From a virus, in IMG/VR virus record IMGVR_UViG_3300045136_000267: a DNA stretch of 64,000 nt. The stretch is one strand, 5' to 3'. The number at the start of each line of letters is the position of its first letter. Position 1 is the stretch's first letter. Shown in pieces: positions 1 to 64,000 of the stretch. Both the position numbers and the translations under genes were made by a program. The notes below the pieces were generated by a model. The model made no database searches. It was not told where the DNA came from and was given only the letters and a program-made list of their open reading frames with translations.

Positions 1-1
1 A

Positions 2-349
2 ATGTATCTCTTAGGTAATACTATAGGCAAAGCGCAAGAAACTTATGCTGCTAAGACTAAAGAAGTGGAATCTGATGAAGATATGATTGAAAGCTATGCT
101 CAGATTGCTGGTACTAGACTAAGTGATGTGCAAGCTCTAAACAAATTCTCTATTAGCTTGATGAAGAAATTGAATAGATTAGCAGCAATGGAATCTTCTC
201 CACAGAAAAATACCAGAAGAACTCCTATAGTCAAGAATTTTACTCCCGAGAATAAACTCGAATCTGAGCATAAGCTAGAAGAAACTGCTACTAAAGAACA
301 TAAATCTTCTGTCAGCCTTGAAGAATTATTTAATGAACAGAAAATTTAA
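2..349 (+). CDS. Hypothetical protein, 5'-truncated by the window edge
   Basis: Open frame from the window start that stops 2 nt before the RNAP start codon. Confidence 0.6.
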   Translation: MYLLGNTIGKAQETYAAKTKEVESDEDMIESYAQIAGTRLSDVQALNKFSISLMKKLNRLAAMESSPQKNTRRTPIVKNFTPENKLESEHKLEETATKEHKSSVSLEELFNEQKI

Positions 350-351
350 TT

Positions 352-3300
352 ATGCAGACATTAGCTAGGCCTGTTCAAGAACTTGAAGAATTGAATCCTG
401 ATACCTTTAAGTCTGTAGATACATCTCCAACGTTACCTACTATTACTGACATTCCCAAGAATTCTATAGCAGTAGATGACATTCAAGCAATCAGACATAA
501 AATCTTTGATAATGTACTTAAAACATTATCTTCTGCTCCAGCACACGCTTATGGTAATTATGTTCTTAAATTAGAGAATCTTAAATATGCTGACCCTGAT
601 AAGTTTTCTATTCAAGACGAAAGAGATGCAATTATTAAAGGTAATTCTCTTACTAGAAGACTAGTAGGCGATTATGTTCTTATTGATGCCAAGACTGGGA
701 AAGAGATAGCTAGAAGAAAGCAGTTAGTAGCTAGAGTACCTTATCTTACTAGTCATGGATCCTTCATTTTCAATGGAAATGCTTACAGTATTGCCAATCA
801 ACTACGTTTAAAGCCTGGCGTCTTCATACGTCTCCGTGGTGATGGTAATGCAGATACTTTCGTAAATACTGTCAAAGGATTGACTCATCATTATACCCTT
901 GACCCTGAAAAGGGTATATTCTACATGTCCTTTGGTAATGTAAATATTCCACTATTTACCGTTCTAAAAGCACTCAACGTCCCTGATGAAAAGATTCTAA
1001 GTGCTTGGGGTCAGAAACTATATGCTTCTAACGCCGCTGCCGGAGCTAAAGCTAACATTGCTAAATTATTTAAGAACAGATTATCTCCAGAACAGATAAA
1101 TCAAGCTCTTCCTAAACTATTAGAGAGCATGAAGTTAGATCCAACAGCTACCCAGCTAACTATTGGTATTCCTGCTACCCATGTCACTCCAGACGTAATG
1201 CTTGAAGCTACTAAGAAAATGCTAAAAGTATGGAAGGGAGAAGCAGAAGCTGATGAGCGTGATGCTTTACACTTCCAGAAAATAGCAGGAGTAGAACATT
1301 TAATTCCAGAATATGTATTCAGAGCACATCAAGGATTACGTAAGTTCATTCCTAGAGCTGTAAGAAAGAATTTCGATTTAAGCGTTATCCCTAGTAATTA
1401 TTATTGGACAGGCATCTCAGATTTACTTCTCGGTAGTGGCTTAGCCGAGATTTTGGAAGAAATTAATCCCACTGAGACCCTCGATAGACTATACAGAGTT
1501 ACTAAGTTAGGCGCCGGTGGTATTGAACAAGTAGAAGCCGTACCAGAGGAAGCTAGATCTGTACATCAGACCCACATGGGTTTTATAGATCCAGCAGTAA
1601 CAGGTAAGTTAAAGCGAGTAGGCGTAGATTTAAGACTTGCATATCTTACTAGGAGAGATGAGAACGGTAAACTTTATACAGTATTTAAAGATGTAAAGTC
1701 CGGTAAATTCGTATGGCGTTCTCCAGAAGATCTCATTAATGCCGTAGTAGTTTATCCTGGTGAAATGGATAATAAAGATAATTATGTATTGGGATCTAAG
1801 AACGGCAGAATTAGATATTTCAACAGAGAAGAAGTAGATTACGAACTACCTTATGGGGAACAATATTTCAATACAATTACTAATTTTCTACCTGCACAAG
1901 GAACAACCTTCCCCCAACGTATCATGATGGGTCAGCAAATGCATTTGCAGGCCCTTCCATTAATTAATGCTGAAGAACCTCTAGTTCAGGGGAAGCTACC
2001 TAATCAAGATAACTCTTTCCAAAGAGCTGCATATAAATATTACGGTGTAGTTAAAAGTGATGTAGATGGAATAGTAGAATCTGTAAGTCCTAATAGAATA
2101 GTTGTCAGAGACAAAAGATCTAATAAGAAAACTGTATACGAATTATACAATAATTTCCCTTTCAATAGAAAGACGTTCATTCATAACACCCCAGTAGTTA
2201 AAACAGGGGATGAAGTATACAAGAACCAATTATTAGCGACTTCTAATTTCTCCGATAAGAATGGCAATCCCGCTTTCGGATTAAATGCTTACATAGCATT
2301 TTTACCTTATCGTGGTTACAACTATGAAGATGCTTACGTGGTATCTGAATCTTTTGCTAAAAGATTAAACTCTGAACATATGTATCAAGAAACTCTGGAT
2401 ATAGCTCCAAACATAATCACTGGAAAAGATGCTTATAAAGCGGCGTTTCCAGGTAAGTATTCAGAGGAATTTTACAATAACTATGATGAAAATGGATTCT
2501 TAAAACCAGGTAGAAAAGCTATTAAAGGACAACCATTAATTTTAGCTGTAAAATCTGCAGATCCGGGTAGAATAGGAGCAAAAAAGAAGATACTTTCTGA
2601 TGCATCTATTATTTGGGATCATGAAAATCCTGGTGTAGTAATAGATACTCATAAAGGAAGAGACAATCTTTATATCAACATTAAGTCTAATTCTTTAGCA
2701 ATTGAAGGAGACAAGTTAACCGGTAGATTTGGTGACAAGGGTGTAATCGCTAGGATCATTCCTGATAGTGAAATGCCTAGAGATAGTCTAGGCAGACCCT
2801 TTGATTTACTAGTTAATCCTCTAGGACTAGCTACTAGAGGTAATATGGGGCAAATCTATGAGGCTGTTCTAGGTAAAATTGCCGCTAAAAATAAGAAACC
2901 TGTATTTGTTCCAGCCTTCATGAGCGACTATTACGTTTTTGCTGATAATATGTTGAAGGCCAATAGGGTTTCCCCCACAGATACTGTTTATGACCCAAAA
3001 TTTGGCACATATATTCCTAATGTTTTAACTGGATATAAATATGTGATGAAATTGCATCACATGGCAGAATCTAAGTTGCAAGAAAGAGAGACTGCTGAAT
3101 ATACAGCAGAAGACATGCCTGCTAGAGGAGGTAAGACAGGGGCAAAATATATAGGTTTCTTGGAATTGATGGGTATCTTAGGTCACAATGCTTTCAATGT
3201 TATTAGAGATGCCAAGTTTGTTAGAGGACAAAGAAATGACAGATTTTGGCTAGATTTCATGCGTGGTGCTACTCCCACAGTCAATACATCAACATTGGTT

Positions 3301-4755
3301 TATGATAAATTTGTAAACCTATTAAAAGCTGCAGGTATAAATATAGAAAGTAACAACGACACTTTGAATCTTTTCGCCCTTACAAACTCTGATATCGCTA
3401 ACCTGACTGCAGATAGGGTAATTAGAAATCCAAATACTGTTAAAGTATTACGTGATGATGTTAAGCCAATAACAGGCGGTTTATTTGATCCGACTATTAC
3501 TGGAGGTCTAGATGGTAGGCATTGGAGCTATTTTGAATTATCTGAACCATTTCCAAATCCAGTAATGGAAGATGTAATTCGTACATTATTGGATTTAACA
3601 GAGAAAGATTACATTGACATTCTAATAGGAAAGAAAACTCTTGAAGGTTCAAATAAATTAGGGCCAGAAGCCCTTAAGGAAGTCTTATCAGAATTTAATG
3701 TTGATAAAGAACTAGATACAGCTATTCGCAATTACAAAGTAGCTCCTGCTAGCAAAAAAAGTGCTTTGATAAAGAAGATTAGATATCTACGGGCTATAAA
3801 GCAAACTAATCAAAAGCCAGAAGAATGGTTCTGGACGAGAATGCCTATTATTCCACCAATCTTTCGTCCAGTCTCCTTAACTAATAAAGTAATAACGGTA
3901 GCTGATGTTAATGCTTTGTATCAAGATTTGTATGAAGCTAATGAAATATTAAATTCTCAGAAGAAATTCATGGAAAATCCATCAGAAGCTAGACTTGCTG
4001 TCTACAACGGCATGAAGGCTGTAGCAGGAATAGGTGATCCTATTCAAGTTAAACATAAGCAGCAGGGGTTAAGGGGTTTATTACAGCAGATAGTAGGTAC
4101 CAGGTCTAAAACAAGCTATGTAATGCGTAAGCTTATTGGTATAACTACTGACTTGGTAGGTAGAGCTGTAATCATTCCAAATCCTGCCTTGGATATAGAT
4201 CATGTAGGTATTCCCATAGAAATGGCCTGGACTTTATTCAGGCCAGTAATAATAAGAAATCTGACTAAACGCGGACTTTCTCTAGTAGATGCAATAAAAG
4301 CATATAATGATAAATCTAAATATGCAGTAGATGCGTTACTAGAAGAGATAAATAACAGGGTAGTTATAGTAAATAGAGCGCCAGTACTGCATAGATATGG
4401 TGTAATGGCATTTAAGCCAGTTCTTACAAAGAATAAAGTAGTAGAATTCAATCCTCAAATAACGTCAGCTTTTGGAGCAGACTTTGATGGTGATGCTGTT
4501 CAAGTACATCTTCCCATACTTGATGAAGCTCAAAAAGAAGCTAAGATGAAAATGCTACCATCAAAGAATTTATTCTCTTCTGCTAATTTTGGACTGTTAT
4601 ATCCTCCGATTAGAGAGTATGCTTTAGGTTTATGGCTGGCAACAGCTTACGAAGATAAAACTAAAAAACCTGTAAGGTTTAAATCTATTGGCGACCTACT
4701 TAAAGCATATAATAGAGGTGAAATTACAATAAATACGCCAGTAGAAATTGGTTAG
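352..4755 (+). CDS. Phage multi-subunit RNA polymerase: beta fused to the N-terminal (catalytic) half of beta'
   Basis: Beta motifs GYNYEDA, GDKLTGRFGDKG, NPLG..RGN.GQ, KLHHM and the C-terminal FVNLLKAAGINIE. These run directly into beta' motifs KPITGGLF, PIIPPIFRP, GRAVI, NRAPVLHR and the catalytic GADFDGD (4474-4494). Confidence 0.96.
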   Translation: MQTLARPVQELEELNPDTFKSVDTSPTLPTITDIPKNSIAVDDIQAIRHKIFDNVLKTLSSAPAHAYGNYVLKLENLKYADPDKFSIQDERDAIIKGNSLTRRLVGDYVLIDAKTGKEIARRKQLVARVPYLTSHGSFIFNGNAYSIANQLRLKPGVFIRLRGDGNADTFVNTVKGLTHHYTLDPEKGIFYMSFGNVNIPLFTVLKALNVPDEKILSAWGQKLYASNAAAGAKANIAKLFKNRLSPEQINQALPKLLESMKLDPTATQLTIGIPATHVTPDVMLEATKKMLKVWKGEAEADERDALHFQKIAGVEHLIPEYVFRAHQGLRKFIPRAVRKNFDLSVIPSNYYWTGISDLLLGSGLAEILEEINPTETLDRLYRVTKLGAGGIEQVEAVPEEARSVHQTHMGFIDPAVTGKLKRVGVDLRLAYLTRRDENGKLYTVFKDVKSGKFVWRSPEDLINAVVVYPGEMDNKDNYVLGSKNGRIRYFNREEVDYELPYGEQYFNTITNFLPAQGTTFPQRIMMGQQMHLQALPLINAEEPLVQGKLPNQDNSFQRAAYKYYGVVKSDVDGIVESVSPNRIVVRDKRSNKKTVYELYNNFPFNRKTFIHNTPVVKTGDEVYKNQLLATSNFSDKNGNPAFGLNAYIAFLPYRGYNYEDAYVVSESFAKRLNSEHMYQETLDIAPNIITGKDAYKAAFPGKYSEEFYNNYDENGFLKPGRKAIKGQPLILAVKSADPGRIGAKKKILSDASIIWDHENPGVVIDTHKGRDNLYINIKSNSLAIEGDKLTGRFGDKGVIARIIPDSEMPRDSLGRPFDLLVNPLGLATRGNMGQIYEAVLGKIAAKNKKPVFVPAFMSDYYVFADNMLKANRVSPTDTVYDPKFGTYIPNVLTGYKYVMKLHHMAESKLQERETAEYTAEDMPARGGKTGAKYIGFLELMGILGHNAFNVIRDAKFVRGQRNDRFWLDFMRGATPTVNTSTLVYDKFVNLLKAAGINIESNNDTLNLFALTNSDIANLTADRVIRNPNTVKVLRDDVKPITGGLFDPTITGGLDGRHWSYFELSEPFPNPVMEDVIRTLLDLTEKDYIDILIGKKTLEGSNKLGPEALKEVLSEFNVDKELDTAIRNYKVAPASKKSALIKKIRYLRAIKQTNQKPEEWFWTRMPIIPPIFRPVSLTNKVITVADVNALYQDLYEANEILNSQKKFMENPSEARLAVYNGMKAVAGIGDPIQVKHKQQGLRGLLQQIVGTRSKTSYVMRKLIGITTDLVGRAVIIPNPALDIDHVGIPIEMAWTLFRPVIIRNLTKRGLSLVDAIKAYNDKSKYAVDALLEEINNRVVIVNRAPVLHRYGVMAFKPVLTKNKVVEFNPQITSAFGADFDGDAVQVHLPILDEAQKEAKMKMLPSKNLFSSANFGLLYPPIREYALGLWLATAYEDKTKKPVRFKSIGDLLKAYNRGEITINTPVEIG

Positions 4756-4778
4756 TCTTTTTTATTAGGAGAGTTTGA

Positions 4779-5372
4779 ATGAAAGGTTCTCATTTATTTC
4801 AATTAGATCCTAATGCTTTCATGAAGGCTTTAGCTAAATTAGCTTCCGAAAAGAACGCCTTTGTTCCTCCTGGTGGCGGTGCTCCTCCTGGTGCTCCTCC
4901 TGGAGGTATGCCTATGGATCCTGCCATGATGGGTATGGCAGCTCCTCCCGGTGGTGGTGCTACTCCAATGGATCCTGCCATGATGGGTATGGCTCCTCCG
5001 CCTGGAGGTATGCCTATGGATCCATCAATGATGGGTGGCGGGGCTCCTCCTGGTGGAGGCGCTCCTCCTCCGATGGGCGGTGGGCTTCCTCCGGAATTGA
5101 TGCAGTTATTAGCTTCTCCGCCCGGCGGTGCTCCTGAGTCCACTGATAATTCTGGCGCTCCTGGCTCTGAAGTCGGTGAGGAGCAAGGTACCGGTACTTC
5201 TACCAGTACTCTAATGGAAATGAAACCCGAAGAGTTCAAAACCTTAGTGATTGATGCTGTAGAAAAAGGTTTCGCTAATTCTGCAGATTCAATGTTAAGG
5301 GTACTAGAAGATATTAGAGATGCTTTAACTAATAAGGCTGGTACTTCTAGAGGCGAGAACGAGAACCTCTAA
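4779..5372 (+). CDS. Pro/Gly/Met-rich low-complexity protein between the RNAP genes
   Basis: AGGAG RBS, three PMDP(A/S)MMG repeats and several GGAPP repeats; tightly packed with both neighbours. Confidence 0.8.
   Translation: MKGSHLFQLDPNAFMKALAKLASEKNAFVPPGGGAPPGAPPGGMPMDPAMMGMAAPPGGGATPMDPAMMGMAPPPGGMPMDPSMMGGGAPPGGGAPPPMGGGLPPELMQLLASPPGGAPESTDNSGAPGSEVGEEQGTGTSTSTLMEMKPEEFKTLVIDAVEKGFANSADSMLRVLEDIRDALTNKAGTSRGENENL
4870..5140 (+). repeat. Coding repeats (atggatcc..ccatgatgggt x3; gctcctcc(t)ggtgg)
   Basis: Imperfect direct repeats visible in the DNA, with locally high GC. Confidence 0.8.
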
Positions 5373-5379
5373 TTAATTA

Positions 5380-7230
5380 ATGACTACAGCAGGTGCTGTT
5401 TTAATAAATGCAATATTACCAGAGGATATAAAAGTATCTGGTACTTTAGACGTAAAAGAGATAAGGGCTCTTTTGTCTAAAGTAGCTCAGAAGTATCCAG
5501 ATAAATTTCCAGAGATTTCTTTGAAGTTAGGGAACTTGGGTGCCGATTTTGCATATCGGCACCCAAAGTCTTCTTTTTCTTGGGAGGAATTAGCTCCTAC
5601 ATACGAATTAGATAATCTAAGAAAAGATTTATATTCTAAAGTTAGAGAAATAATTTCCGATTCCACTACAGACTGGGATAAAAAGTCTAGTAAAATAATA
5701 GATATAGTATCTAAATATGATGATCTCTTCTTGGAAAAAACCAAAGAGATATTGAAACAGAGAGGTGGGGCTCTTTACGGTCAGTCTTCTTCTGGTACTA
5801 GAGGTAAACCTGTAGATATTAGAAGACTTCTAACGGGTGATATTCTCTACGTAGATCATAAGAATCGACCTATTCCTGTTCCAGTATTACGCGGTTATTC
5901 AATGGGTCTAAGACCAAGCGAATACTGGCTAGCAACTTTCGGCGCCAGAAAAGGATTCGTGACTACGAATCTTGGAACAGCAGATGCTGGGTACCTAAGC
6001 AAACAATTAACTAATGCTGCTCATAGACTTATAGTCACTGCTGTTGATTATAAAGGTAAGGATCCACTACCTATTGGATTACCAGTAGATACTTCAGATC
6101 CTGATAATGCTGGTAGCTTTCTTGCCGCAGATGTAGGCGGCTATAAACGAAATACTTTATTAACTCCAGAGATATTAGCTGATTTGAAAAATAAAGGTTT
6201 TAACCAGATTCTTGTCAGAAGCGTTTTAACCAAAAGACTACCAGGTGGTGGAGTAACTGCTAAAGATGTTGGATTAATGGAAAACGGTAGAATGTTAAGC
6301 CCAGGGGATATGATTGGAATAATTGCTTCTCAATCTCTAGGTGAACCTGTAACACAAATGGTTATTGGGGCTAAACATTCTGGTGGTACTTCTAAGACTA
6401 AGATAGACATTGGTTCTTTGATTCTAGCTTTGCAAGTACCCAAACAATATAGGGGAGCTGTACATACCGACAATGCAGGTACTGTTAAAAACATTACGGA
6501 TGCTTCTGCTGGTGGTAAGATTGTTACCATTGATAATGAACAGTATTACGTACCTCCGCAAGAAGAAGTAAATGTAAAAATTGGTGACTTTGTAGAAGCT
6601 GGTGATCCTATTAGTTCTGGAATTCCAAATATTTCTAAGTTAGTACAGCATAAAGGCATTGGAGAAGGTAGAAGGAAATATGTAGAATTATTAAGAGATA
6701 TTTATAAGCAAACAGGTTTTAATATAATAAGAAGAAACTTTGAAATATTAGTTTCTGGATTAATAGATCATGTAAAATTAACTCAACCCATAGGGAATTA
6801 CATTCCTGGAGATGTGGTATCTTACACGTGGTTAGAATCTAAGTGGACACCACGGGAAGGTAGTAAATGGATATCAGTAGATAAAGCTGCAGGAAAATAT
6901 CTAGAATTGCCAGTTTTACATTATACTATCGGAACAGCTATTGCACCATCTATGGTGAAAATATTAAAACAATTTAATATTGACAATGTTTTAGTACATG
7001 ACGATCCTCCGCCATTTGAACCTTACATGGTTCCGGCTGCTAAAGTTATTGATTATGATCCAGATTGGTTAGTACGATTTTTAGGTGGTACCTTTGGACA
7101 GAAGAGAAGCTTAATAAAAGCTGTTAGTGAGGGACATAAGAGTGAGATTTTCTCTACTTCTTATGTACCTCCTTTCGTTACCGGGAAAGCATTTGCCACG
7201 GAGTGGCCTAAAAAGATTCTGCAAAGTTGA
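5380..7230 (+). CDS. Phage RNA polymerase beta' C-terminal half
   Basis: Starts TTAG..LIN.ILP; SGTRG; bridge helix GARKGFVTTNLGTADAGYLSKQL; trigger loop SQSLGEPVTQM...HSGG; GD.V.AGD; RRNFEILV. Confidence 0.94.
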   Translation: MTTAGAVLINAILPEDIKVSGTLDVKEIRALLSKVAQKYPDKFPEISLKLGNLGADFAYRHPKSSFSWEELAPTYELDNLRKDLYSKVREIISDSTTDWDKKSSKIIDIVSKYDDLFLEKTKEILKQRGGALYGQSSSGTRGKPVDIRRLLTGDILYVDHKNRPIPVPVLRGYSMGLRPSEYWLATFGARKGFVTTNLGTADAGYLSKQLTNAAHRLIVTAVDYKGKDPLPIGLPVDTSDPDNAGSFLAADVGGYKRNTLLTPEILADLKNKGFNQILVRSVLTKRLPGGGVTAKDVGLMENGRMLSPGDMIGIIASQSLGEPVTQMVIGAKHSGGTSKTKIDIGSLILALQVPKQYRGAVHTDNAGTVKNITDASAGGKIVTIDNEQYYVPPQEEVNVKIGDFVEAGDPISSGIPNISKLVQHKGIGEGRRKYVELLRDIYKQTGFNIIRRNFEILVSGLIDHVKLTQPIGNYIPGDVVSYTWLESKWTPREGSKWISVDKAAGKYLELPVLHYTIGTAIAPSMVKILKQFNIDNVLVHDDPPPFEPYMVPAAKVIDYDPDWLVRFLGGTFGQKRSLIKAVSEGHKSEIFSTSYVPPFVTGKAFATEWPKKILQS

Positions 7231-7250: not shown

Positions 7251-9587
7251 ATGACTTCTAGCTTAAGTACTAGTTTTTCTGTCTTAAGAAAATTACCTGA
7301 AAAGAGGTTTCTGGGTAATTATAAATTTGCAGCCGCAGAGGGGGATGAAGGTAATTATGAAGCTGCTTTGAGCAACATTGCTCATGCTTATATACAAGAC
7401 GTAGCCCCAGATCTACTTCCTTATGAATTGGGATTTCAGTTAGTTGAAAAGAACAGAGACGCTAATAGAGCCCTTGGTGTATTTGGTTTTAAGATAAACA
7501 ACTTAGTTTGTTATATTCCTATTTTCTTTATTGATGGAGACATTTTTGGCCTAGATCTTCTCTTTGTTCATAATTTTAAGCGCTGGATTCCTCTTGAGAG
7601 AGAATTTGTAAAGAAATTAATTAATTCTTCTAAAGCAGCTGTAGGTAGTCCAGTAGATGCTCTATCTAAATCGTTATTATCTGAATTACCTAATTTAATG
7701 CAATTTAAGCCTTATACGCTCAAGTGGGCTATGGACCTACCTGAATGGCTAAGACCTTTCTCTGTAGAACTAGTAAATAACAAAAGAGCACCTAAAGTAG
7801 AGAGAAAAGAGAGATTATTAGATTTACTTTCTAAATCCGCTTCTGCCGCAAGGAAATTTAGTGAATTTTTACTTGAGCATCCTATTTACATTAAATCTTT
7901 TGACAAAGCCTATGGTTTGAATCGTATTAAAGAAGCTATTAAAACAGCGGCTGATACTGACAAAAAACCAGTAATTCCTTCATTGGAGGAATCTGGTAAA
8001 CCTGCTGATGTAGAGATTTATACTAATATCCATTCAGACGCTATTCATAAACTTACTGAGACAGAATTGGCCACCCTTAGAAGACAAGGATATTATGTAA
8101 AGGATAAGAGAAATAAAACTACTATTATAAAACCGTATGAATTTAACAATAAGAAAGCACAGACGGTAGATAAAGCAGGTTTTTATCATCTATTACTTGC
8201 CGATCTATCTAGAGTGTGTGCTTTTGTAGTACCTATCGTAGCTGAATTTGATGAAGATGTTTATTCGTCTTCTAATGAGAACGAAAGAAAGCGTCGTGAT
8301 AAGCATATTAAGCATTCTTATTTAGTAGTTCCTATTTATAGAATGGCAGAAGATGGTGAAATCTTAAAGACTTATTCTGGTGACCTTGGCTTTGTCGCTT
8401 ATTCTGATAGCTTAGTGGCTATTAATACTCCAAAAGACTATGATAAACATTCTATTAATGACTTTAAGTCATTAAGAAATATCGAAGGTAATAAAGATTA
8501 TTACAGCAGATATATAGTATTTACAGCAAATAATGCTACTCCTCCTATTAGGCAGTTAAAGAAATTAGATAAACAACATAGAGGTAGGACACTATTCTCT
8601 GTAGACTTAGACTGTGGTTGTGTATCTGAGGGACCAATCGAGCCATATCCTACCCATCTTGTATTAGATCCTGTTCTAACTAATGAAATTAAGTTCCATA
8701 AGAGATTTGATAATAATGCTAAATGGAATGAAAAGTCTATAAGATTACATGTTCCTGTCAATGCTAAATATGTGAAACTAATAAACGATTATGTAGACTC
8801 TGATTCTGAAGAGGCAGAAATAAATAGTATTAGGCATGGTCTTGTTAGTTCTAATGACATTTTACGTACTCTTCTTAAGAGTGCAGATGGTGAATTAAAG
8901 GCATTTGAAATATCTAACGATGAGGTAATCATTAATAACAAACCCTTGAATAAGAAAGCTGCCTTTCAACATCTAATTCTAGACTATGGCTTGAGTGAAG
9001 CTGACGCTAAAGAAGTATTGAAGAAAGTTGCATATAAGAAGGAAGCTAGATACGTCTATAAAAAAGCAGATGATATGAATTTTCCAAATGCTCCTCCGCC
9101 TCCAGGAGGACCTGCATTGGAAAAGATGCAGCCTTATCTAGGTTCGTTTGGACAAGCTCCTGCAACTAGTCCTCTTTACTCTATTCTAGTAAATCAAATT
9201 CCAGGCCTCCCATTGCCTGATAATCCTTATTCTGATCTCAAAGGTACTATTGATTTTGATAAGATTGTCAATCAAGCGATTCAATCCGGGGAAAAAGAAA
9301 TTCTGGACACTAGCGTATTTACTGGTTTGATCCATGCTACTGATGAGAGAGAATTAATAGATAAATATTTTGATGACATAGTAGATGGTCTAAATGCTAT
9401 TGGACAACTATTATTTAATATTTACATGCATAAAGACAAAATTGAAGAAGTATATGGTAAAGAATCTTATAAAGAGATAGAAAATCTAGTTAGAAATAAT
9501 TTCAGAAATTTAGGAAAGATGGTAGTAAGGTTATTCAATAGACCTAATACTTCTAACTTCAAACCATTAACTTCTTTAGAGGTGTAA
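7251..9587 (+). CDS. Large hypothetical protein, probably virion/head-associated
   Basis: 778-aa ORF at the start of the head region with many K-x-A motifs. Confidence 0.55.
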   Translation: MTSSLSTSFSVLRKLPEKRFLGNYKFAAAEGDEGNYEAALSNIAHAYIQDVAPDLLPYELGFQLVEKNRDANRALGVFGFKINNLVCYIPIFFIDGDIFGLDLLFVHNFKRWIPLEREFVKKLINSSKAAVGSPVDALSKSLLSELPNLMQFKPYTLKWAMDLPEWLRPFSVELVNNKRAPKVERKERLLDLLSKSASAARKFSEFLLEHPIYIKSFDKAYGLNRIKEAIKTAADTDKKPVIPSLEESGKPADVEIYTNIHSDAIHKLTETELATLRRQGYYVKDKRNKTTIIKPYEFNNKKAQTVDKAGFYHLLLADLSRVCAFVVPIVAEFDEDVYSSSNENERKRRDKHIKHSYLVVPIYRMAEDGEILKTYSGDLGFVAYSDSLVAINTPKDYDKHSINDFKSLRNIEGNKDYYSRYIVFTANNATPPIRQLKKLDKQHRGRTLFSVDLDCGCVSEGPIEPYPTHLVLDPVLTNEIKFHKRFDNNAKWNEKSIRLHVPVNAKYVKLINDYVDSDSEEAEINSIRHGLVSSNDILRTLLKSADGELKAFEISNDEVIINNKPLNKKAAFQHLILDYGLSEADAKEVLKKVAYKKEARYVYKKADDMNFPNAPPPPGGPALEKMQPYLGSFGQAPATSPLYSILVNQIPGLPLPDNPYSDLKGTIDFDKIVNQAIQSGEKEILDTSVFTGLIHATDERELIDKYFDDIVDGLNAIGQLLFNIYMHKDKIEEVYGKESYKEIENLVRNNFRNLGKMVVRLFNRPNTSNFKPLTSLEV

Positions 9588-15142: not shown

Positions 15143-16543
15143 ATGCTAAAGTTAGTAGAACCATCCTGGAATTTTGGATCTCAAGTAGTTTCCCACGTAA
15201 AGATAGCTAGTACTGGAATTAAAGGAATTGACTATAAGAATCTTGCCAAAGAAACTAGCGAAGAATTTGCTCATGATGTAAAGAATCTTATTAAACCTGC
15301 TTCTGGTGAAGAATATGTTCATGTAATAGCACTTGGTTCTTTAGAATATTACGGTTGCAACCGTGTAGGTGATGCTTTTGAAGTAGAAGTTTGCAAGAAA
15401 TATCATCCTACTTTTACTAAGAAAGCCAAGTGGTATAGAAACCATATTCATCACGATCCTAGCCGTTCTTATGGGGTTGTTAAGTTATCTCATTTTGATC
15501 CTAAATTAAATAGAATAGATCTTATTGCTGCTTTAAATGCAACTAAAACCGCTGCAGATAGAAACGGTGGTCTAATAGCAGACAAGGAGCTAGAAAAGCT
15601 ATATTCTGGAGAGACTATTCCAGTAAGCATGGCTTGCTATGTAAGCTATGACATTTGCTCTGGCTGTGGTCATAAAGCTAAGAACGTATATGAAAGATGT
15701 ACTCCTAATATTTGTGTAAAATATGGAGGTTGTAAAGACAATCTAGGGAAGACATTTGATGATGGTCATACTCTTCATGTGAAGAACCCCGATCCTGTCT
15801 TCTTTGATATCAGTTATGTAACTATACCTGCCGATAGAATTGCATTTAGTATTGGATTAGTTAAAGATCCTAATGTTTCTATCAAGAAATTAGCAGATGT
15901 AGGTCTTAGAAATATTCTGTATAAAACTATTGATAAGCCTAAGCATAGATATGAGTTAGTATCAAAGAAAGTAGAACCTAATTCTATAACTCTAACTATT
16001 GTTGCTAAAATGGCAGCTCTGGAAAGACATGGAATTCTTCCAGAGTACAATAAATATACTAGCGCCCTCGCTTCCAGACCTATAGTTCAACTCAATGAAC
16101 ATGTACCTACAGTAATATCTACACTTAATAAATATGCTTGTGTGGCTCCTCCATTAGTATTCTTCCGTGAGATATATCCAGTTATTAGAAAGAAAAATCC
16201 AGTAAATGCTCATATTGATGTATCTACTTGTTTCAGAGATTTGTTAAAATCTGCAAGTAGAGATATTGATTTAGAAACTAATCCATATCTACATTATACT
16301 TCAGGTGAACTTAATAGGATTAAAGTAAACTGGTTAAAGGAAAATTGGTCACTGAATTTAGAAAAGTTGAATAAAGATATTGCTTTTTTGAAAAAACAGG
16401 CTAACTTTAGAAGAATACAGGAAGTAAGAAATCCAGAATTGGCAAAAGAATATGCTCTTTATCAATTAGGTTTCTTACTGGAAAATACAAGAGACGATTT
16501 AAAACAAGTACTTGTTCTTGCTAATCAAATCGGAGATAAATGA
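15143..16543 (+). CDS. Prohead maturation protease with Cys-rich insert
   Basis: N..GD.F, WYRNH (His), VSMAC.V.YD.CSGCGH (Ser) and FFDISYV..PAD motifs typical of caudoviral prohead proteases; lies upstream of scaffold and capsid genes. Confidence 0.75.
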   Translation: MLKLVEPSWNFGSQVVSHVKIASTGIKGIDYKNLAKETSEEFAHDVKNLIKPASGEEYVHVIALGSLEYYGCNRVGDAFEVEVCKKYHPTFTKKAKWYRNHIHHDPSRSYGVVKLSHFDPKLNRIDLIAALNATKTAADRNGGLIADKELEKLYSGETIPVSMACYVSYDICSGCGHKAKNVYERCTPNICVKYGGCKDNLGKTFDDGHTLHVKNPDPVFFDISYVTIPADRIAFSIGLVKDPNVSIKKLADVGLRNILYKTIDKPKHRYELVSKKVEPNSITLTIVAKMAALERHGILPEYNKYTSALASRPIVQLNEHVPTVISTLNKYACVAPPLVFFREIYPVIRKKNPVNAHIDVSTCFRDLLKSASRDIDLETNPYLHYTSGELNRIKVNWLKENWSLNLEKLNKDIAFLKKQANFRRIQEVRNPELAKEYALYQLGFLLENTRDDLKQVLVLANQIGDK

Positions 16544-18828: not shown

Positions 18829-19755
18829 ATGGCCATAAAGACTACGTTACGTAATGAAGCATTTCTTAATGAAGTGCAATCTGGTTCGCCTCAGCTAGTT
18901 AAGCAGGCCCAGGAGAGAATGACCTCTATGGTCCGCTTAATGGTGCGTGAAGGTGCTGTAGATAGACAGGTACTCGTTCCAGAGTACATCACGTATAGCG
19001 ATCTTGATCGTCAGGTTGATACTGATGTTATGGTCAAGATCGTGGATGTGGAACCGAATAGCCCTGCTGCTTTCAGCGTAGGCTTTGGTTCTGCTTCTCC
19101 GATGTTCTGGATCGCGGCTAGACGTGTTCGTGCTACGTTTAACCGCATCAAGACTAATGAAGCTCTGTATGATATTGAACTTCTTGGTACCTGGGAGATG
19201 GATATCCAGGAAGTCATCGCTAATAACATGATTCGCGATATCTTGGCTAGAGAAGACGGTGGCTTCTTTAATGCTGTAAATGACTTCGTTGGTGCTGCTG
19301 ACGCTGTTAATAGCGTAACCCAGTCCGTTACTTATGCCACTATTTATGGTGGTTATACTAGAGAAACTCTTCAGGAAGCGGCTGCCGTTATGTTGAAATC
19401 GGCATATCGTCTGCAGCCTGTAACTGTAGTAATTAATACAGTTACTGCTAGAAGATTGATGTCACTTGGTCGTGAAGAGTTGGGTGACGATTCTGCTGGT
19501 AGAATCTTCCGTGAAGGGTTCTCGCAGTGGAAGTTCGATAACCTCAACTGGGTAGTCACTAGCAAGCGTCATATCGTGGCTGACGATGAAATGTATTTCT
19601 TTGCCGACCCGCGTGCGGTAGGTAAGTTCTACATTCTGAATGATACCACTACCCATCTGACCGTTGACGGTCATGACCTGAGATTCTATTCGTCTCAGAC
19701 TTACTCGCAAGTTGTTGTGAACGTTGCCGGTTTAGCCAAAGTACGCTTCGCGTAA
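18829..19755 (+). CDS. Major capsid protein (probable HK97 fold)
   Basis: 308 aa after protease, scaffold and decoration genes; AGGAG RBS; strongest codon bias in the window; I..REDG.F helix. Confidence 0.75.
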   Translation: MAIKTTLRNEAFLNEVQSGSPQLVKQAQERMTSMVRLMVREGAVDRQVLVPEYITYSDLDRQVDTDVMVKIVDVEPNSPAAFSVGFGSASPMFWIAARRVRATFNRIKTNEALYDIELLGTWEMDIQEVIANNMIRDILAREDGGFFNAVNDFVGAADAVNSVTQSVTYATIYGGYTRETLQEAAAVMLKSAYRLQPVTVVINTVTARRLMSLGREELGDDSAGRIFREGFSQWKFDNLNWVVTSKRHIVADDEMYFFADPRAVGKFYILNDTTTHLTVDGHDLRFYSSQTYSQVVVNVAGLAKVRFA

Positions 19756-28976: not shown

Positions 28977-30722
28977 ATGCCTGTACCTTATGTTGCATTA
29001 GGCGTTAGACTATTTGCTTTTGTCCAGCATCCTGATTATGGATGGGCTCCTCTCTCTGTAACATCTTTCCAATGTGATTATACTATAAATCAGATTCCTC
29101 AGGCTACAATTGAAGCTCCTCTAGGAGTAACGCGCGATTATCTTATTAGTACAGCTCATGTACTTAATGGTAATTTATTTAGAATTCCAATAGTAGTAAT
29201 AGCCTCTGTAGATTACGGTTTTGGTTCTCAGGGTACCTTAGGTCTATTACTAGATAGTCCTTTAGCTTATCCTAAAGTCTTTTTACTATTTTCTGGTTAT
29301 GTAACTAAAGTAACAGTAATAAGAAGAGAGAAGGGTGTTTTTGCCAGTCTCTCTTGTGTACATTGGTTGTCTCAGTTGGACTTCTCTTCTGGCATCTCTT
29401 CAGTTATACATCCAAATAATCCAGCCCATTTGACATTTCCAGCTTTCTACAAAACAGGAGCTGGGGGTTTTCTTGGTGGAGGAGCCAGAGGATTTTCTCC
29501 TTTAGAAGTAGTACAAGGATTATTAACAGTTAAGGAACTAAAAGATGATCCGTGGGAATATGGAATCTATAGATGGCTGGCTTTTTTAGCAAAGACAGAC
29601 GCGGCATATTTCGCTCAACCATATGTTTTAAATGCTTTAAATTCAATTATCTACAAGTTTTATGTAATAGAACCTCCATATACTAGACCAGAATTACGCC
29701 CTGCTCTAAGACCAAGAACCGATTATCCTGATGCAGAAAGGATACTTGCTAATATTGCAGACTCTTTAGCTGGTAGGACTACGAACCATACAAAGAATGA
29801 TTTGTTGAATATCACGTCTTTAGCACAAAATACAATCTGGTCTAAATTGGTTAACGAATTATCTCCTGAATTACAATTCGTAATATGTCCATTGCCTGGG
29901 TATGCTCGGGTTATACCATATAATCCTGTATATGCTCCAGTTAAATTTCCTATAGATAGTTTCTCGTTTGATAGTAACTGGTATGTACCTTTTAAATACT
30001 CAAAGGTTGTCTCTTTTACAATAAGAACAGACCAAATTTTCTCTACTGTAGAAACAAGTGCAGCACAGATTCCTGTTAAAGTATTTGGTTTATATGGTAA
30101 TTATGCTCCATTAGCTGGAAGTAATTTAGAAGTAGGTAATTCTTTACAATCATTTATTGGTGGCTATTATGCTGCCCCAGAGATAACAGCAGGACAAATA
30201 GTTTTAGAGAAAGCTCCATTTTTCTTATCTATGTCTTCTGTACCATCTGTATATCTAGGTCAAATGATATCATTCAATAGAGCTACTATGAGAAACTTAC
30301 CTGCTGCGATACAGACTAATAGGGAAATAGCTTTAGCGGGACTAGCAGAGCAGACAATATTAGATAGAATGGCTAAATTTTTGTATGCTAAGAAATTGAC
30401 AGAACATAGGCAGCTAGAAATAGCGGGACCATTACGTTTTGATATTTGTCCTGGTAGTACAATTGCTGTAGAAGCAGTAGGTTCAAATTATTTGCCTGGT
30501 TCTTTTGCAACAGATACAGCTGTTATAGGATATGTATATAGTGTAGGATATGATATAGATTTAAATAGACAGAATACACCGGCTAGAACTATTTTTAGAC
30601 TAACGAATTTGAGGAATATATTTGAAAATTGTTACACCTTTAGTTTTACAGTTAGACGCCATCCTCTGTATAAATATTCATTTATAGGCGGTACAATGGC
30701 AAATCAATTGTATTATGGCTGA
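28977..30722 (+). CDS. Putative baseplate hub protein
   Basis: N-terminal VTSF.C.Y.IN.IP.ATI, LFSGYV and C-terminal IAGPLRFDICPGSTI patterns of hub (gpD/gp27-type) proteins. Confidence 0.5.
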   Translation: MPVPYVALGVRLFAFVQHPDYGWAPLSVTSFQCDYTINQIPQATIEAPLGVTRDYLISTAHVLNGNLFRIPIVVIASVDYGFGSQGTLGLLLDSPLAYPKVFLLFSGYVTKVTVIRREKGVFASLSCVHWLSQLDFSSGISSVIHPNNPAHLTFPAFYKTGAGGFLGGGARGFSPLEVVQGLLTVKELKDDPWEYGIYRWLAFLAKTDAAYFAQPYVLNALNSIIYKFYVIEPPYTRPELRPALRPRTDYPDAERILANIADSLAGRTTNHTKNDLLNITSLAQNTIWSKLVNELSPELQFVICPLPGYARVIPYNPVYAPVKFPIDSFSFDSNWYVPFKYSKVVSFTIRTDQIFSTVETSAAQIPVKVFGLYGNYAPLAGSNLEVGNSLQSFIGGYYAAPEITAGQIVLEKAPFFLSMSSVPSVYLGQMISFNRATMRNLPAAIQTNREIALAGLAEQTILDRMAKFLYAKKLTEHRQLEIAGPLRFDICPGSTIAVEAVGSNYLPGSFATDTAVIGYVYSVGYDIDLNRQNTPARTIFRLTNLRNIFENCYTFSFTVRRHPLYKYSFIGGTMANQLYYG

Positions 30723-31485
30723 GTTAAAAACAGAAGACAGATTGAAATTAGCTTGGAAACAGTGGTATGAAAACCCAGAAAACAAGCAGCTATCAACTAA
30801 ATTAATGAATGAATTTACACCTATTATTAATTCATTCATTACTACTTATCTAGGTGCTAGTTATGTAAATGACCCTCTTATTCAGGGACGGGCTAAAACA
30901 GTCCTTTTTGAGTCTCTAGGTAAGTATGATCCAACCAAGGGTAGTCTTACTACCTTTGCATGGACTAATCTTCAAAGATTGCAGAGATATATGTCAAAAC
31001 ATCAGAATGTCTTGCATATGTCTGAGCAATCTATTATGTTATCTAAGGCCTTAAATGAAGCTACAGAAAGACTTAGAGAAAGTCTTGGGAGAGAACCATC
31101 TGATCAAGAATTAGCTGATAATCTAGGAATATCTATTAAAAGAATAGAAACAATTCGTAAAAGGCAGCAAGTTGGATATGAGGGTTCTTTTGAAGAAGCT
31201 ACTGGAGAAGATTCAGCCTCTTTACCCGCAGCTAAGAAAGCTAAAGATTTACAGTATCTCTATAATGTGTATTATGATGCCTTGGAAGATAATAAAGATA
31301 AATATATACTAGAATCGACGTTTGGTTTGCACGGAAAACCTAAAAAGACTATATCAGAAATTGCTAAGGATTTAAATATATCTAGAAACAATGTGAATCA
31401 AAGATTAAACAAAATAAGAGAAGATTTTAAAGTATTAACACAGACTGCCACTTCAGGTTCTAGTATAGATTTAGAACTAGAATAA
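30715..31485 (+). CDS. Sigma-70 family RNA polymerase sigma factor (FliA/SigB-like size)
   Basis: Region 2 KYDPTKGSLTTFA, region 3 LGREPSDQELADNLGIS and region 4 HTH KTISEIAKDLNISRNNVNQ. Confidence 0.9.
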   Translation: MAELKTEDRLKLAWKQWYENPENKQLSTKLMNEFTPIINSFITTYLGASYVNDPLIQGRAKTVLFESLGKYDPTKGSLTTFAWTNLQRLQRYMSKHQNVLHMSEQSIMLSKALNEATERLRESLGREPSDQELADNLGISIKRIETIRKRQQVGYEGSFEEATGEDSASLPAAKKAKDLQYLYNVYYDALEDNKDKYILESTFGLHGKPKKTISEIAKDLNISRNNVNQRLNKIREDFKVLTQTATSGSSIDLELE

Positions 31486-42985: not shown

Positions 42986-43869
42986 GTATGCACAGCACAT
43001 CCAAGAAGTTCTTTGTGTTCAACACTGGGAAAAACATTTATGGCTATCCAGGTAAGCCTATAACATTTGCAGATATTTATGCTGCAAAGCCAGAGTTTAT
43101 CTATACTAATGGAATCTACCAAGCATTTTCTATTATTAGTGAATTTGATAGAAAGATAACCGTTAAAGTATCTGCACCGACGTTATGGCAAGGTAATACC
43201 CTTCTCAAACTATTTAATAGGGTAAGAAATCTGAGTAAAGTCATACCTACCTCCCGTGGAGGATTTAGGCAAGTGACTGATGTAGATTCTTCTATTTATC
43301 GTTTGAGATATCAGCTAGAGAATGGTTCTATCTCTAATCTAGAATATCCCCTCGTAATTACTAATACCTTATTCAATTGGGAACTTACTCAGAAATTGCA
43401 ATTCTTTCCATTCCTCAGCCTCCCCCATTTATACAAACTTTATAGCCTAATTCTCGACGTACGCTGGTTCTTTTATCCGGAGCATAAAATAAGTAAGCTA
43501 GAACGATATTTTGGTTACGGAGTTAAGAAAGATGACTATAATGATAAACTTTATGATAGAATAGACACGCTTAGAAGTACCTGGAAAGAACTAAACATAG
43601 CAGAAAGTATAAAAGCATGTGAAAAAGATATAGATATTTCAGATCCAAAGCTATTTCTCTGGAGATATTGGTATTCTTGTCTTACAAAGACGCATAGTGA
43701 AGCTAGCGCCGACTTTAAAACTTCAAAGAAATTCTTATCTATTCTAGCATACCTATGGATAGATTCTGTCTACGCCCACTGTTATGATAGGCTATTCGAA
43801 CCTACTAGAATTTTAGACGACGCGGCTGCTAAGGAGTACATCTTATGGTCGAAACAAAAGTGCTCTTAG
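42982..43869 (+). CDS. Hypothetical protein
   Basis: GTG start overlapping the sbcC stop. Confidence 0.6.
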   Translation: MSMHSTSKKFFVFNTGKNIYGYPGKPITFADIYAAKPEFIYTNGIYQAFSIISEFDRKITVKVSAPTLWQGNTLLKLFNRVRNLSKVIPTSRGGFRQVTDVDSSIYRLRYQLENGSISNLEYPLVITNTLFNWELTQKLQFFPFLSLPHLYKLYSLILDVRWFFYPEHKISKLERYFGYGVKKDDYNDKLYDRIDTLRSTWKELNIAESIKACEKDIDISDPKLFLWRYWYSCLTKTHSEASADFKTSKKFLSILAYLWIDSVYAHCYDRLFEPTRILDDAAAKEYILWSKQKCS

Positions 43870-45335
43870 TAGACAGAGGAAACTATCTTTTCATTAAAGA
43901 CCATAAACAGTACGATTCCCTAATTTACAAAGAGCTTTCATATGTGCATAAGCAATACGATGTGAATTATGCACATATGGTTATGTTAAGGAAAACGTGC
44001 TATGAAGAAATAGATGTTAAAAATGAAAAGATAATAGTAACTCCAAGTGGTTTCCTAGATAGAATTAAGGCATTATTTGAAAGAAATAACATTAAATATG
44101 AATATCAAAAACAAGGAGATTTCCATGACTGCGTTGCAGAATATACAGATGAATCCCTGTTAGGGAATATCACTCTCAGAGGAAAGCAAATTCAGTGTCT
44201 TAAACAGATATTAACAAATCGACGAGGAATAATTAAAGCGCCTGTAGGCTTCGGCAAATCTTTCTTGTTTCCAGTCCTTGCCAGATTGGCTAGCTCTGCT
44301 AAAATTGACATAGTAGTCAAGAGGAAGGACATTGCCCAGGCTATTTATAAGGATTGCAAGAACTTCTGCATTCCTGTAGGATTAGTAACTTCTGGTAAAA
44401 AGCATAAACAAAGGGTTACTATCTATACCGCTGGCAGCCTTGGTCATTCTGACTATGACGCAAATCTTGTCTTAGTAGATGAATGCCATGAGCTGGCTAC
44501 TGATAGATATCTTTCTTATCTTCTAAGATATAAGAAAGCCAATATCTTCGGATTCTCTGCCACTCCTTTCACTCGATTTGATAACGAAGGATTCGTTCTA
44601 GAGGGAGTATTCGGAAAAGTTATCTATGAATCCACTTATAACGATAATGTATCAGTTAAAAGCGTAGTTCCTATAGTCATAAGGTGGATTCCTGTAAGTT
44701 ATCATCAGAAGTATAGTAACATAAAACATGAAGCTATCTATAAGAAAATATTCATTTGGAATAACATAAACAGGAATCGTAAGATAGCTCAAGTAGCGGA
44801 TGAGTATTTGAACCAGGGTAAGCAAGTACTCATAATTACTGAAACAGTAGAACACGCTCTCAGACTTAAAGCGTTACTGCCTAGATTTACTCTCTGCACA
44901 GGGGCTGTATCTGCTACCAAGATAAAGAGATTCAAAGCTCAAGGATTGCCAGTAGATAGCTTAAATGTAGCAGGGAGGAGCGAATTATACGATGACTTTA
45001 AATCTAGGAAGTTGATGGGTGTAATAGCCACAGACGTGTGGTCAACAGGTGTAAGCTTTGATGATTTAGATGTACTAGTTAGAGCAGATGCTAGAGCTAG
45101 CGGTACTATAAGTACTCAGGTACCAGGAAGAGTTTCTCGTATCCCTAAATTGACAGATAAGGAAGTAGGAATAGTAGTAGATTTTGCTGATATCTTTGAC
45201 ACTAAGTTATATAATAGGTCACTTAGTAGATTTAGAATTTACAAACAATTGGGATGGATACAATGCGATGCATTACTGCATCCGATTACAAAGCTTTCAG
45301 ACTTAAAGAATCCTTCTATCTTTACACAGCTCTAA
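43845..45335 (+). CDS. Superfamily 2 DExH helicase (UvsW/ResIII-like)
   Basis: APVGFGKS, DECH, SAT and QVPGRVSR motifs. Confidence 0.9.
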   Translation: MVETKVLLVDRGNYLFIKDHKQYDSLIYKELSYVHKQYDVNYAHMVMLRKTCYEEIDVKNEKIIVTPSGFLDRIKALFERNNIKYEYQKQGDFHDCVAEYTDESLLGNITLRGKQIQCLKQILTNRRGIIKAPVGFGKSFLFPVLARLASSAKIDIVVKRKDIAQAIYKDCKNFCIPVGLVTSGKKHKQRVTIYTAGSLGHSDYDANLVLVDECHELATDRYLSYLLRYKKANIFGFSATPFTRFDNEGFVLEGVFGKVIYESTYNDNVSVKSVVPIVIRWIPVSYHQKYSNIKHEAIYKKIFIWNNINRNRKIAQVADEYLNQGKQVLIITETVEHALRLKALLPRFTLCTGAVSATKIKRFKAQGLPVDSLNVAGRSELYDDFKSRKLMGVIATDVWSTGVSFDDLDVLVRADARASGTISTQVPGRVSRIPKLTDKEVGIVVDFADIFDTKLYNRSLSRFRIYKQLGWIQCDALLHPITKLSDLKNPSIFTQL

Positions 45336-63712: not shown

Positions 63713-63798
63713 TATAGAGATATAGAAATATAAATTATAGAGATATCTATAGAGATATAGAAATATAAATTATAGAGATATCTATAGAGATATAGAAA
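63713..63798. repeat. 35-bp tandem repeat (about 2.5 copies) within an AT-rich low-complexity tract
   Basis: TATAGAGATATAGAAATATAAATTATAGAGATATC at 63713 and 63748, partial copy at 63783. Confidence 0.85.
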
Positions 63799-64000
63799 AT
63801 ACAGATTATAGATATATTAAGATAAAGATATAGAAGTATAGATATAGAACTATAGAGATGTTCTACAGAGATATAGAAGATAAATGATATCAATAGACTA
63901 TAAAGATATAGAATACAAGTAAGTAATATCTATAGAGATATAGAAGATAAAGAATCTTTATAAAGATAACAAAGATAGAAGATGTAAAGATCTCTGTAGA

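Follow-up and report, generated by a model that had tools for sequence, protein, structure and literature searches.

A cysteine-free, bacterial-type RNA polymerase encoded among the head genes of an uncultured phage: a candidate virion enzyme

We analysed a 64,000-nucleotide (nt) stretch of viral DNA, hereafter the window, from IMG/VR record IMGVR_UViG_3300045136_000267, in which two genes between positions 352 and 7230 encode an RNA polymerase (RNAP) devoid of cysteine. It corresponds to the minus strand of an 86.9-kilobase (kb) viral contig with a CheckV completeness of ~44%, and its source is best explained as a tailed phage with a genome of roughly 200 kb; a blastn search of the locus DNA against 50,697 phage records returned no match. 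The first open reading frame (ORF; 352–4755, plus strand of the window) encodes a large chain of 1467 amino acids (aa), comprising a complete beta subunit followed by the N-terminal half of beta' (beta::beta'N), as judged from Pfam, blastp against E. coli beta and beta', and alignment. The second (5380–7230, plus strand) encodes the C-terminal half of beta' (beta'C) in 616 aa, identified by Pfam, blastp and its homologues.

The enzyme is a bacterial-type beta/beta' RNAP that is readily found by Pfam. The large chain contains Rpb2 domains 2, 3 and 6, followed by Rpb1 domains 1 and 2. Rpb2_6, the beta domain that bears the second double-psi barrel, is matched at 9.4e-52 with 176.8 bits against a cut-off of 23.4; Rpb2_3 also exceeds its cut-off, Rpb1_2 is matched at 2e-25, and E. 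coli beta aligns with the fusion protein at 7e-33 in blastp. The chain stops at approximately residue 555 of E. coli beta'. The second chain aligns to E. coli beta' residues 662–1283, lacks the lineage-specific insert SI3 and is matched by Rpb1_5 (domain 5) at 5.5e-29 over the bridge-helix and trigger-loop region. Thus, the division of Pfam domains between the two ORFs indicates that the polymerase is cut differently from the bacterial one, and 120 homologues of the fusion protein show the same layout. The catalytic Mg-binding motif, GADFDGD, lies at residues 1375–1381 of the large chain (4474–4494, plus strand; located by alignment) and has a complete aspartate triad (Asp 1377, 1379 and 1381). 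Its first residue is glycine, compared with asparagine in relatives such as P0013, which have the cellular form NADFDGD.

No cysteine is present in either chain (0 of 2083 aa), so that the first-pass annotation, which had reported none in 1467 + 616 aa, is confirmed by the ORF counts. In the gene for the large chain, no cysteine codon (TGY) is in frame, where 18.3 are expected from position-specific base composition, and the two remaining frames contain 20 and 87; for the second gene the in-frame count is again 0, the other frames hold 5 and 38, and 10.2 are expected. Together, the two genes have none of ~28 predicted in-frame codons, although TGY occurs 107 times out of frame in the first and 43 times in the second. 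Cysteine averages 1.03% over the remaining 86 ORFs of the contig, against which the probability of finding none in 2083 aa is 4e-10. Taking the morphogenesis half alone (0.68% cysteine), it is 6e-7, and the earlier estimate of about 3e-5, made at an assumed 0.5% cysteine, was arithmetically right and conservative. The replication half (35–64 kb) contains 1.66% cysteine, in agreement with the earlier remark that the replication proteins do have this residue. One could ascribe the absence to chance or to the composition of an AT-rich genome, since the phage has a G+C content of 35% and bacterial beta/beta' is already cysteine-poor (22 residues in 2749 aa of E. coli beta plus beta'). This explanation, to which we attach practically no credence, is refuted by the abundance of TGY out of frame with 28 codons expected in frame, by the improbability of the result against the genome's own proteins, and by the family counts and intein contrast described below.

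Counting cysteines per ORF and in homologues, the check that the first-pass annotation had proposed, gave zero here and nearly zero across the family. Homologues of the fusion protein of normal length (n = 113, 41–58% identity) have 14 cysteines in 166,052 aa, and those of beta'C (n = 98) have 3 in 61,862 aa. An exhaustive profile-free search found beta'C matches at E <= 1e-30 in 964 clusters at 50% identity, and the beta'C part of 54 of the listed cluster representatives contains a single cysteine in 33,480 residues. Six of the 14 cysteines in the fusion homologues fall in one alignment column, which corresponds to C454 of E. coli beta' and lies shortly ahead of the catalytic motif; relatives P0006–P0011 retain a cysteine at this position, which is occupied by T1371 in the window protein. 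From the alignment, the cysteine in this column seems to be ancestral and to have survived in a single subclade. Those outside the column are singletons.

The homologues that are rich in cysteine are all longer and all carry inteins. Inteins in the RNAP genes contain 2–3% cysteine, and the cysteines of these long proteins fall, with few exceptions, within the insert; most of the exceptions lie at an imprecise alignment boundary. Where the intein junctions could be resolved, they are canonical, the intein starting with cysteine or serine and ending in (H/S/E)N. The +1 extein residue in the RNAP genes is serine or threonine at every resolved junction and cysteine at none. By contrast, the intein in the phage's own portal gene is followed by cysteine at +1. 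Cysteine-rich inteins inserted in cysteine-free exteins, set against the +1 cysteine of the portal, indicate that selection acts on the mature RNAP protein. The trait persists in hundreds of relatives that have diverged and that come from numerous sample sources, and the absence of cysteine is selected for across the family. Thermophily or another property of the environment can be ruled out as the cause, given this spread over sample sources and the fact that other proteins of the same genome keep their cysteines. The other cytoplasmic enzymes of the phage have 1.2–2.5% cysteine, and thus the pressure is specific to the RNAP proteins.

Many representatives of the beta'C clusters at 50% identity (P0251–P0394) additionally have a low-complexity C-terminal extension of 400–1100 aa that has no Pfam match. 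These extensions are nearly cysteine-free, with 15 cysteines in 34,545 aa. The 778-aa ORF that follows beta'C in the window (7251–9587) was considered as a detached form of such an extension and ruled out, as it shows no similarity to the extensions of the relatives. In P0323, beta'C is fused to NUDIX and SNF2 helicase domains, the latter matching virion protein gp217 of phage Arash; NUDIX is also present in P0144 and P0154. The only Helicase_C match in the contig is a 496-aa ORF at 43845–45335, which is probably not a cysteine-free, gp217-like SNF2 helicase partner of the RNAP such as that of Arash, since it has 8 cysteines and lies in the replication region.

Both zinc sites of beta' are lost in the window enzyme. 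The N-terminal zinc ribbon (Zn1), which has been described as common to all multisubunit RNAPs (PMC7618050), is removed by a 32-residue deletion corresponding to E. coli beta' 68–99, the segment holding C70, C72, C85 and C88; by alignment, the junction lies at fusion residues 1055/1056 (3514–3519, plus strand). The deletion is common to the whole family and is present in all six aligned phage sequences, namely, the window protein and five relatives including Arash. At the second site (Zn2; 6049–6267, plus strand, also located by alignment), the ligands C814, C888, C895 and C898 of E. coli are replaced by Y224, K285, T293 and D296. In beta'C of Arash (gp216) and of Vibrio phage D69, the four Zn2 ligands are the sole cysteines, and the large chains of the two phages have one and two cysteines, respectively. 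Judging from these alignments, the loss looks stepwise: the ribbon would have been deleted first, dispensable thiols purged next, and Zn2 replaced last, in a large uncultured clade that includes the window phage.

A gene at 30715–31485 (plus strand) encodes a sigma-70-family factor of 256 aa with no cysteine, an orthologue of Arash gp10 by tblastn (1e-12). Sigma70_r3 (41.1 bits) and Sigma70_r4 (28.6 bits) are both matched above the Pfam cut-offs, and sigma-70 region 2 was not detected in this ORF. Seven of eight homologues of the factor have no cysteine. From its sequence, this protein is likely to be the specificity subunit of the window RNAP. Searches with the alpha families PF01000 and PF01193, for which the controls matched in 14 of 14 genomes, gave no match in the phage's own, incomplete contig or in the complete genome of Arash. 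The complete genomes of Arash and D69 each encode only one beta' catalytic domain and only one beta, which means that this one enzyme must be active within the cell as well, throughout infection.

The RNAP genes are located between orthologues of the portal and the major capsid protein. The portal orthologue (889 aa; L005:11030–13699, minus strand) lies ~10.7–13.3 kb upstream of the window and is interrupted by the intein mentioned above, whereas the capsid orthologue (308 aa, no cysteine; 18829–19755, plus strand; tblastn to Arash gp226, 1e-19) and an orthologue of Arash virion protein gp222 (15143–16543, by tblastn-based orthology) lie downstream. The terminase of the phage was likewise identified through orthology to Arash. 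The first-pass annotation had placed the RNAP genes at the front of the head module; they do belong to the module, but they sit inside it, with the portal ~11–13 kb upstream. With a beta::beta'N fusion, a separate beta'C chain, a place in the head module and a gp10-like sigma factor, the locus belongs to the Arash-like two-chain RNAP family. The same beta::beta'N plus beta'C layout is found in Arash (gp206 and gp216, with sigma gp10; OQ632216) and in Vibrio phages D69, D148 and D181, the two Arash chains being 31% and 26% identical to those of the window. Arash- and D69-type enzymes resemble the window RNAP in the deletion of Zn1, the location of the genes between portal and capsid, the orthologous sigma factor and the presence of a single polymerase set. 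They differ in keeping the four Zn2 cysteines and one or two others, where the window enzyme has none, and in having other genes between the two chains in place of the Pro/Gly/Met-rich ORF of the window.

Among Arash and its Vibrio phage relatives, presence in the virion has been measured only for Arash, particles of which were purified on a sucrose gradient and analysed by virion proteomics (PMC10585845). The large chain gp206 yielded 128 unique peptides and 3516 spectra, the highest of all proteins, beta'C (gp216) yielded 40 and 1210, and the sigma factor gp10 yielded 24 and 467; for comparison, the portal gp204 gave 32 unique peptides and 877 spectra, and likely contaminants of the preparation gave 2–11 unique peptides (PMC10585845). 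A second Arash sigma factor, gp196, appears nowhere in that paper, including its virion table (PMC10585845). The virion-detected gp10 is cysteine-free, whereas gp196 has three cysteines. In totals summed by hand from sampled Arash proteins, those with at least 15 unique peptides (n = 15) have 43 cysteines in 11,269 aa (0.38%), and those that are enzymes or for other reasons would not be expected to belong to the particle (n = 12) have 80 in 6,330 aa (1.26%). The occurrence of the enzyme in the Arash virion is thus already published, with its interpretation left open by the authors (PMC10585845). By orthology, it makes residence of the window RNAP in the virion plausible.

Virion RNAPs and cysteine-free ejected proteins are known kinds. 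Phage N4-like virion RNAPs and their co-ejected partners are devoid of cysteine, which their authors connect with the route of these proteins through tail and periplasm (PMC11445570, PMC3715699), so that what the first-pass annotation said of the N4-type enzyme is borne out by the literature. As is proposed for the window enzyme, these polymerases (gp50 of N4 and gp71 of DEV; Schitoviridae) are carried in the capsid and ejected, and small cysteine-free ORFs flank the window RNAP as well. The N4 enzyme, however, consists of one giant polypeptide, has a single-subunit core of the T7 type that is unrelated to beta/beta', works with no sigma factor and belongs to a podovirus. The virion RNAP of phiKZ is also of the multisubunit beta/beta' type; it lacks alpha and omega, and it is carried in a myovirus head and injected (PMC7598289, PMC7618050). 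In phiKZ, beta and beta' are split into four or five chains (gp178, gp149, gp180, gp80 and gp176) compared with two in the window, and they are much more diverged from the cellular enzymes. Furthermore, phiKZ and AR9 have separate virion and non-virion sets, whereas Arash and D69 have a single one, and none of the group 1 (phiKZ-type) phages has a sigma-70 factor (PMC7824862).

A third kind is represented by the crAss-like Cellulophaga phage phi14:2, a podovirus, in which a 2180-aa virion protein with a DFDID motif, which we take to be the crAss-type virion RNAP, has two cysteines, at residues 3 and 2179. The protein is virion-borne according to the mass spectrometry annotation of its record, and the neighbouring large virion proteins are also almost cysteine-free. 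It differs from the window enzyme in being a single chain with no detectable similarity to cellular beta/beta' (PMC7481178). Overall, suppression of cysteine is common, not obligatory, among packaged RNAPs.

Several points weigh against a packaged and injected enzyme in the window phage. The virion RNAP of phiKZ (subunit list from PMC7618050) has 16 cysteines in 2614 aa (0.61%; 17 in 2856 aa with gp176 included), compared with 1.16% in the non-virion RNAP of the same phage. An injected enzyme with near-normal cysteine content shows that injection does not require its absence. Many ordinary virion proteins of the window phage, the capsid protein included, are cysteine-free as well, and the trait therefore points to residence in the particle rather than to injection or passage through the tail as such. 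As to the proteomics, the Arash preparation listed 116 of ~250 proteins, including ribonucleotide reductase (PMC10585845), and the non-structural proteins among them make carry-over possible, as its authors say. The only proteomic data come from a relative at 26–31% identity, and packaging in the window phage and the fully cysteine-free clade may be deduced by orthology to it. Moreover, a single RNAP set must act in the cytoplasm, where cysteine would do no harm, and the contig represents only ~44% of the genome.

Some of these points lend substance to a different explanation, in which the enzyme is an ordinary, non-packaged RNAP for middle and late genes, the cysteines and zinc were lost for another reason (for example, a need to withstand oxidative or zinc-poor conditions during infection, or to evade a host factor that targets thiols), and the Arash signal reflects carry-over of an abundant late protein. 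With a single RNAP set in its relatives, the enzyme certainly acts in the cell; many non-structural enzymes are found in the Arash preparation, and the packaged RNAP of phiKZ shows that such an enzyme need not lack cysteine. Yet the other cytoplasmic enzymes of the phage keep their cysteines, and the pressure is protein-specific and follows detection in the Arash virion, down to the sigma factors, of which the detected one is cysteine-free and the one missing from the paper is not. Furthermore, the unique peptide count of gp206 exceeds that of the portal and any other count read in the table, far from the range of likely contaminants, and the genes lie among head genes. We therefore consider a purely intracellular enzyme improbable.

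The genes flanking the large chain are cysteine-free as well. Upstream, a 314-aa ORF with two or three hydrophobic helices ends at position 349; its C-terminal third is in the window (1–349, plus strand), and its start lies 595 nt upstream (L005:1–945, minus strand; window -595 to 349). A cysteine-free ORF of 254–339 aa occupies the same slot in L010, L011 and L012, but BLAST finds no similarity between the 314-aa protein and these same-slot ORFs, and homology is not claimed. A role in ejection or in the membrane is conceivable for this protein. The two RNAP chains are separated by a 197-aa Pro/Gly/Met-rich ORF (4779–5372, plus strand) with 20 methionines, the position, composition and lack of cysteine of which are kept in L010, L011 and L012. 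It is predicted to be largely disordered (pLDDT, the predicted local distance difference test, of 0.49 for the Atlas model) and contains repeats such as PPGGMPMDPAMMGM. The ESM Atlas offered no usable lead for either of the two ORFs. All these genes are on the same strand, with gaps of 2–23 nt. In three relatives (42–58% identity), the order is conserved: a ~300-aa ORF, the fusion gene, a Pro/Gly/Met-rich ORF of ~200 aa, beta'C and a ~790-aa ORF, with an extra ORF of ~90 aa before beta'C that is found in the relatives only and not in the window. Their RNAP chains have zero or one cysteine and the two small ORFs flanking the large chain have none, whereas the 90-aa ORF, the 790-aa ORF and a LigD-like ligase all contain cysteine.

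Further upstream, ~1.9–4.2 kb from the window, a 764-aa protein has a 3'-phosphoesterase of the LigD type joined to an ATP-dependent ligase (L005:2206–4500, minus strand); it is cysteine-free in the window phage and has 3–4 cysteines in two relatives. A 578-aa ORF upstream of the LigD-like gene is cysteine-free, too. The portal intein spans C41–N302, with Cys303 at +1, and six further cysteines are present in the portal. When ~35 neighbouring ORFs were compared with Pfam and PHROGs, hardly anything emerged apart from the terminase, the sigma factor, the LigD-like ligase and the portal intein. At its far end (~63750–64000), the final 250 nt of the window are dense in AGATATAGA-like words; the window ends 198 nt past the end of the contig.

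Taken together, we consider it probable that this enzyme is a bacterial-type RNAP that depends on a sigma factor, is packaged and initiates phage transcription. It would be the sole RNAP of the phage, a slimmed two-chain core without an alpha homologue that works with a phage sigma-70-family factor. The enzyme would be synthesised late, at the same time as the proteins of the head, and incorporated into the capsid; delivered to the host with the DNA, it would transcribe the first phage genes, and newly made copies would continue transcription later in infection. A cysteine-free protein would have no thiols to oxidise or cross-link during extracellular storage or entry, and a zinc-free one would have no metal site to refill if the chains unfold and refold. 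Of the proposal in the first-pass annotation, that a cysteine-free RNAP is packaged and injected, the bacterial type of the enzyme and selection against cysteine have held, and virion residence is plausible from the Arash mass spectrometry and the head-module location; the step from lack of cysteine to injection is weaker than it assumed, in view of the phiKZ enzyme and the cysteine-free capsid protein. Beyond these observations, packaging in the window phage, ejection, unfolding and host-independent early transcription are what we infer.

A packaged enzyme might, on the other hand, have a mainly mechanical or structural role, pulling in the genome by transcription, as in N4, or condensing DNA as an internal head protein, with host RNAP still needed early in infection. 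For an enzyme, the number of spectra obtained in Arash is very high, the N4 virion RNAP is described as part of a DNA ejectosome (PMC13434306), and the flanking membrane-like and disordered cysteine-free proteins could be ejection components. A packaged sigma factor and an intact catalytic centre, however, fit promoter-specific transcription. The mechanical and transcription-starting roles are not mutually exclusive, and the present data do not tell them apart; as the main function, the mechanical one appears to us even less likely than an enzyme confined to the cell.

Kinship with the RNAP-encoding Caudovirales (mReC) of Weinheimer and Aylward (2020) should also be considered. The beta and beta' of these uncultured tailed phages are easily aligned to those of cells and branch off outside Bacteria (PMC7481178), and the phages come from environments and have contig sizes similar to those of the window phage. 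For mReC contigs, PF07068 was given as the capsid family and PF03237 as the terminase family (PMC7481178), whereas the capsid orthologue of the window lacks PF07068 and its terminase matches PF05876 and PF04466; given that the two families were reported for only 8 and 17 mReC contigs, respectively, the RNAPs may be related despite this mismatch. Fusion, virion, sigma and cysteine are not mentioned in the mReC paper (PMC7481178). Among open-access papers and preprints, we found none that notes the cysteine-free or zinc-free state of the family or treats it as a class of virion RNAP. In its widest form, the reading of a packaged RNAP would describe a widespread lineage of ~200-kb myophages with a capsid-borne sole RNAP, a complete sigma-dependent holoenzyme (beta::beta'N, beta'C and sigma-70) that was re-engineered stepwise, by deletion of Zn1, purging of thiols and replacement of Zn2, for packaging, ejection and refolding, and that represents the first thiol-free, metal-site-free member of the universal RNAP family. 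For this whole proposition, arguments for and against seem to us evenly balanced.

The zinc sites of beta' are usually treated as near-universal elements of the structure; in this family, an enzyme still recognisable as a bacterial-type RNAP dispenses with both of them and with all thiols, and the intermediate stages are preserved. Suppression of cysteine across a family, checked against inteins in the same genes, provides an inexpensive way to flag likely capsid cargo in uncultured phages from sequence alone, and a compact two-chain RNAP without cysteine or zinc may serve as an oxidation-tolerant enzyme. If packaging is confirmed, the family would constitute a fourth independent kind of virion RNAP and the only one that is of cellular type, uses a sigma factor and is the sole polymerase of its phage, which would bear on how large phages escape host dependence and host defences in the first minutes of infection.

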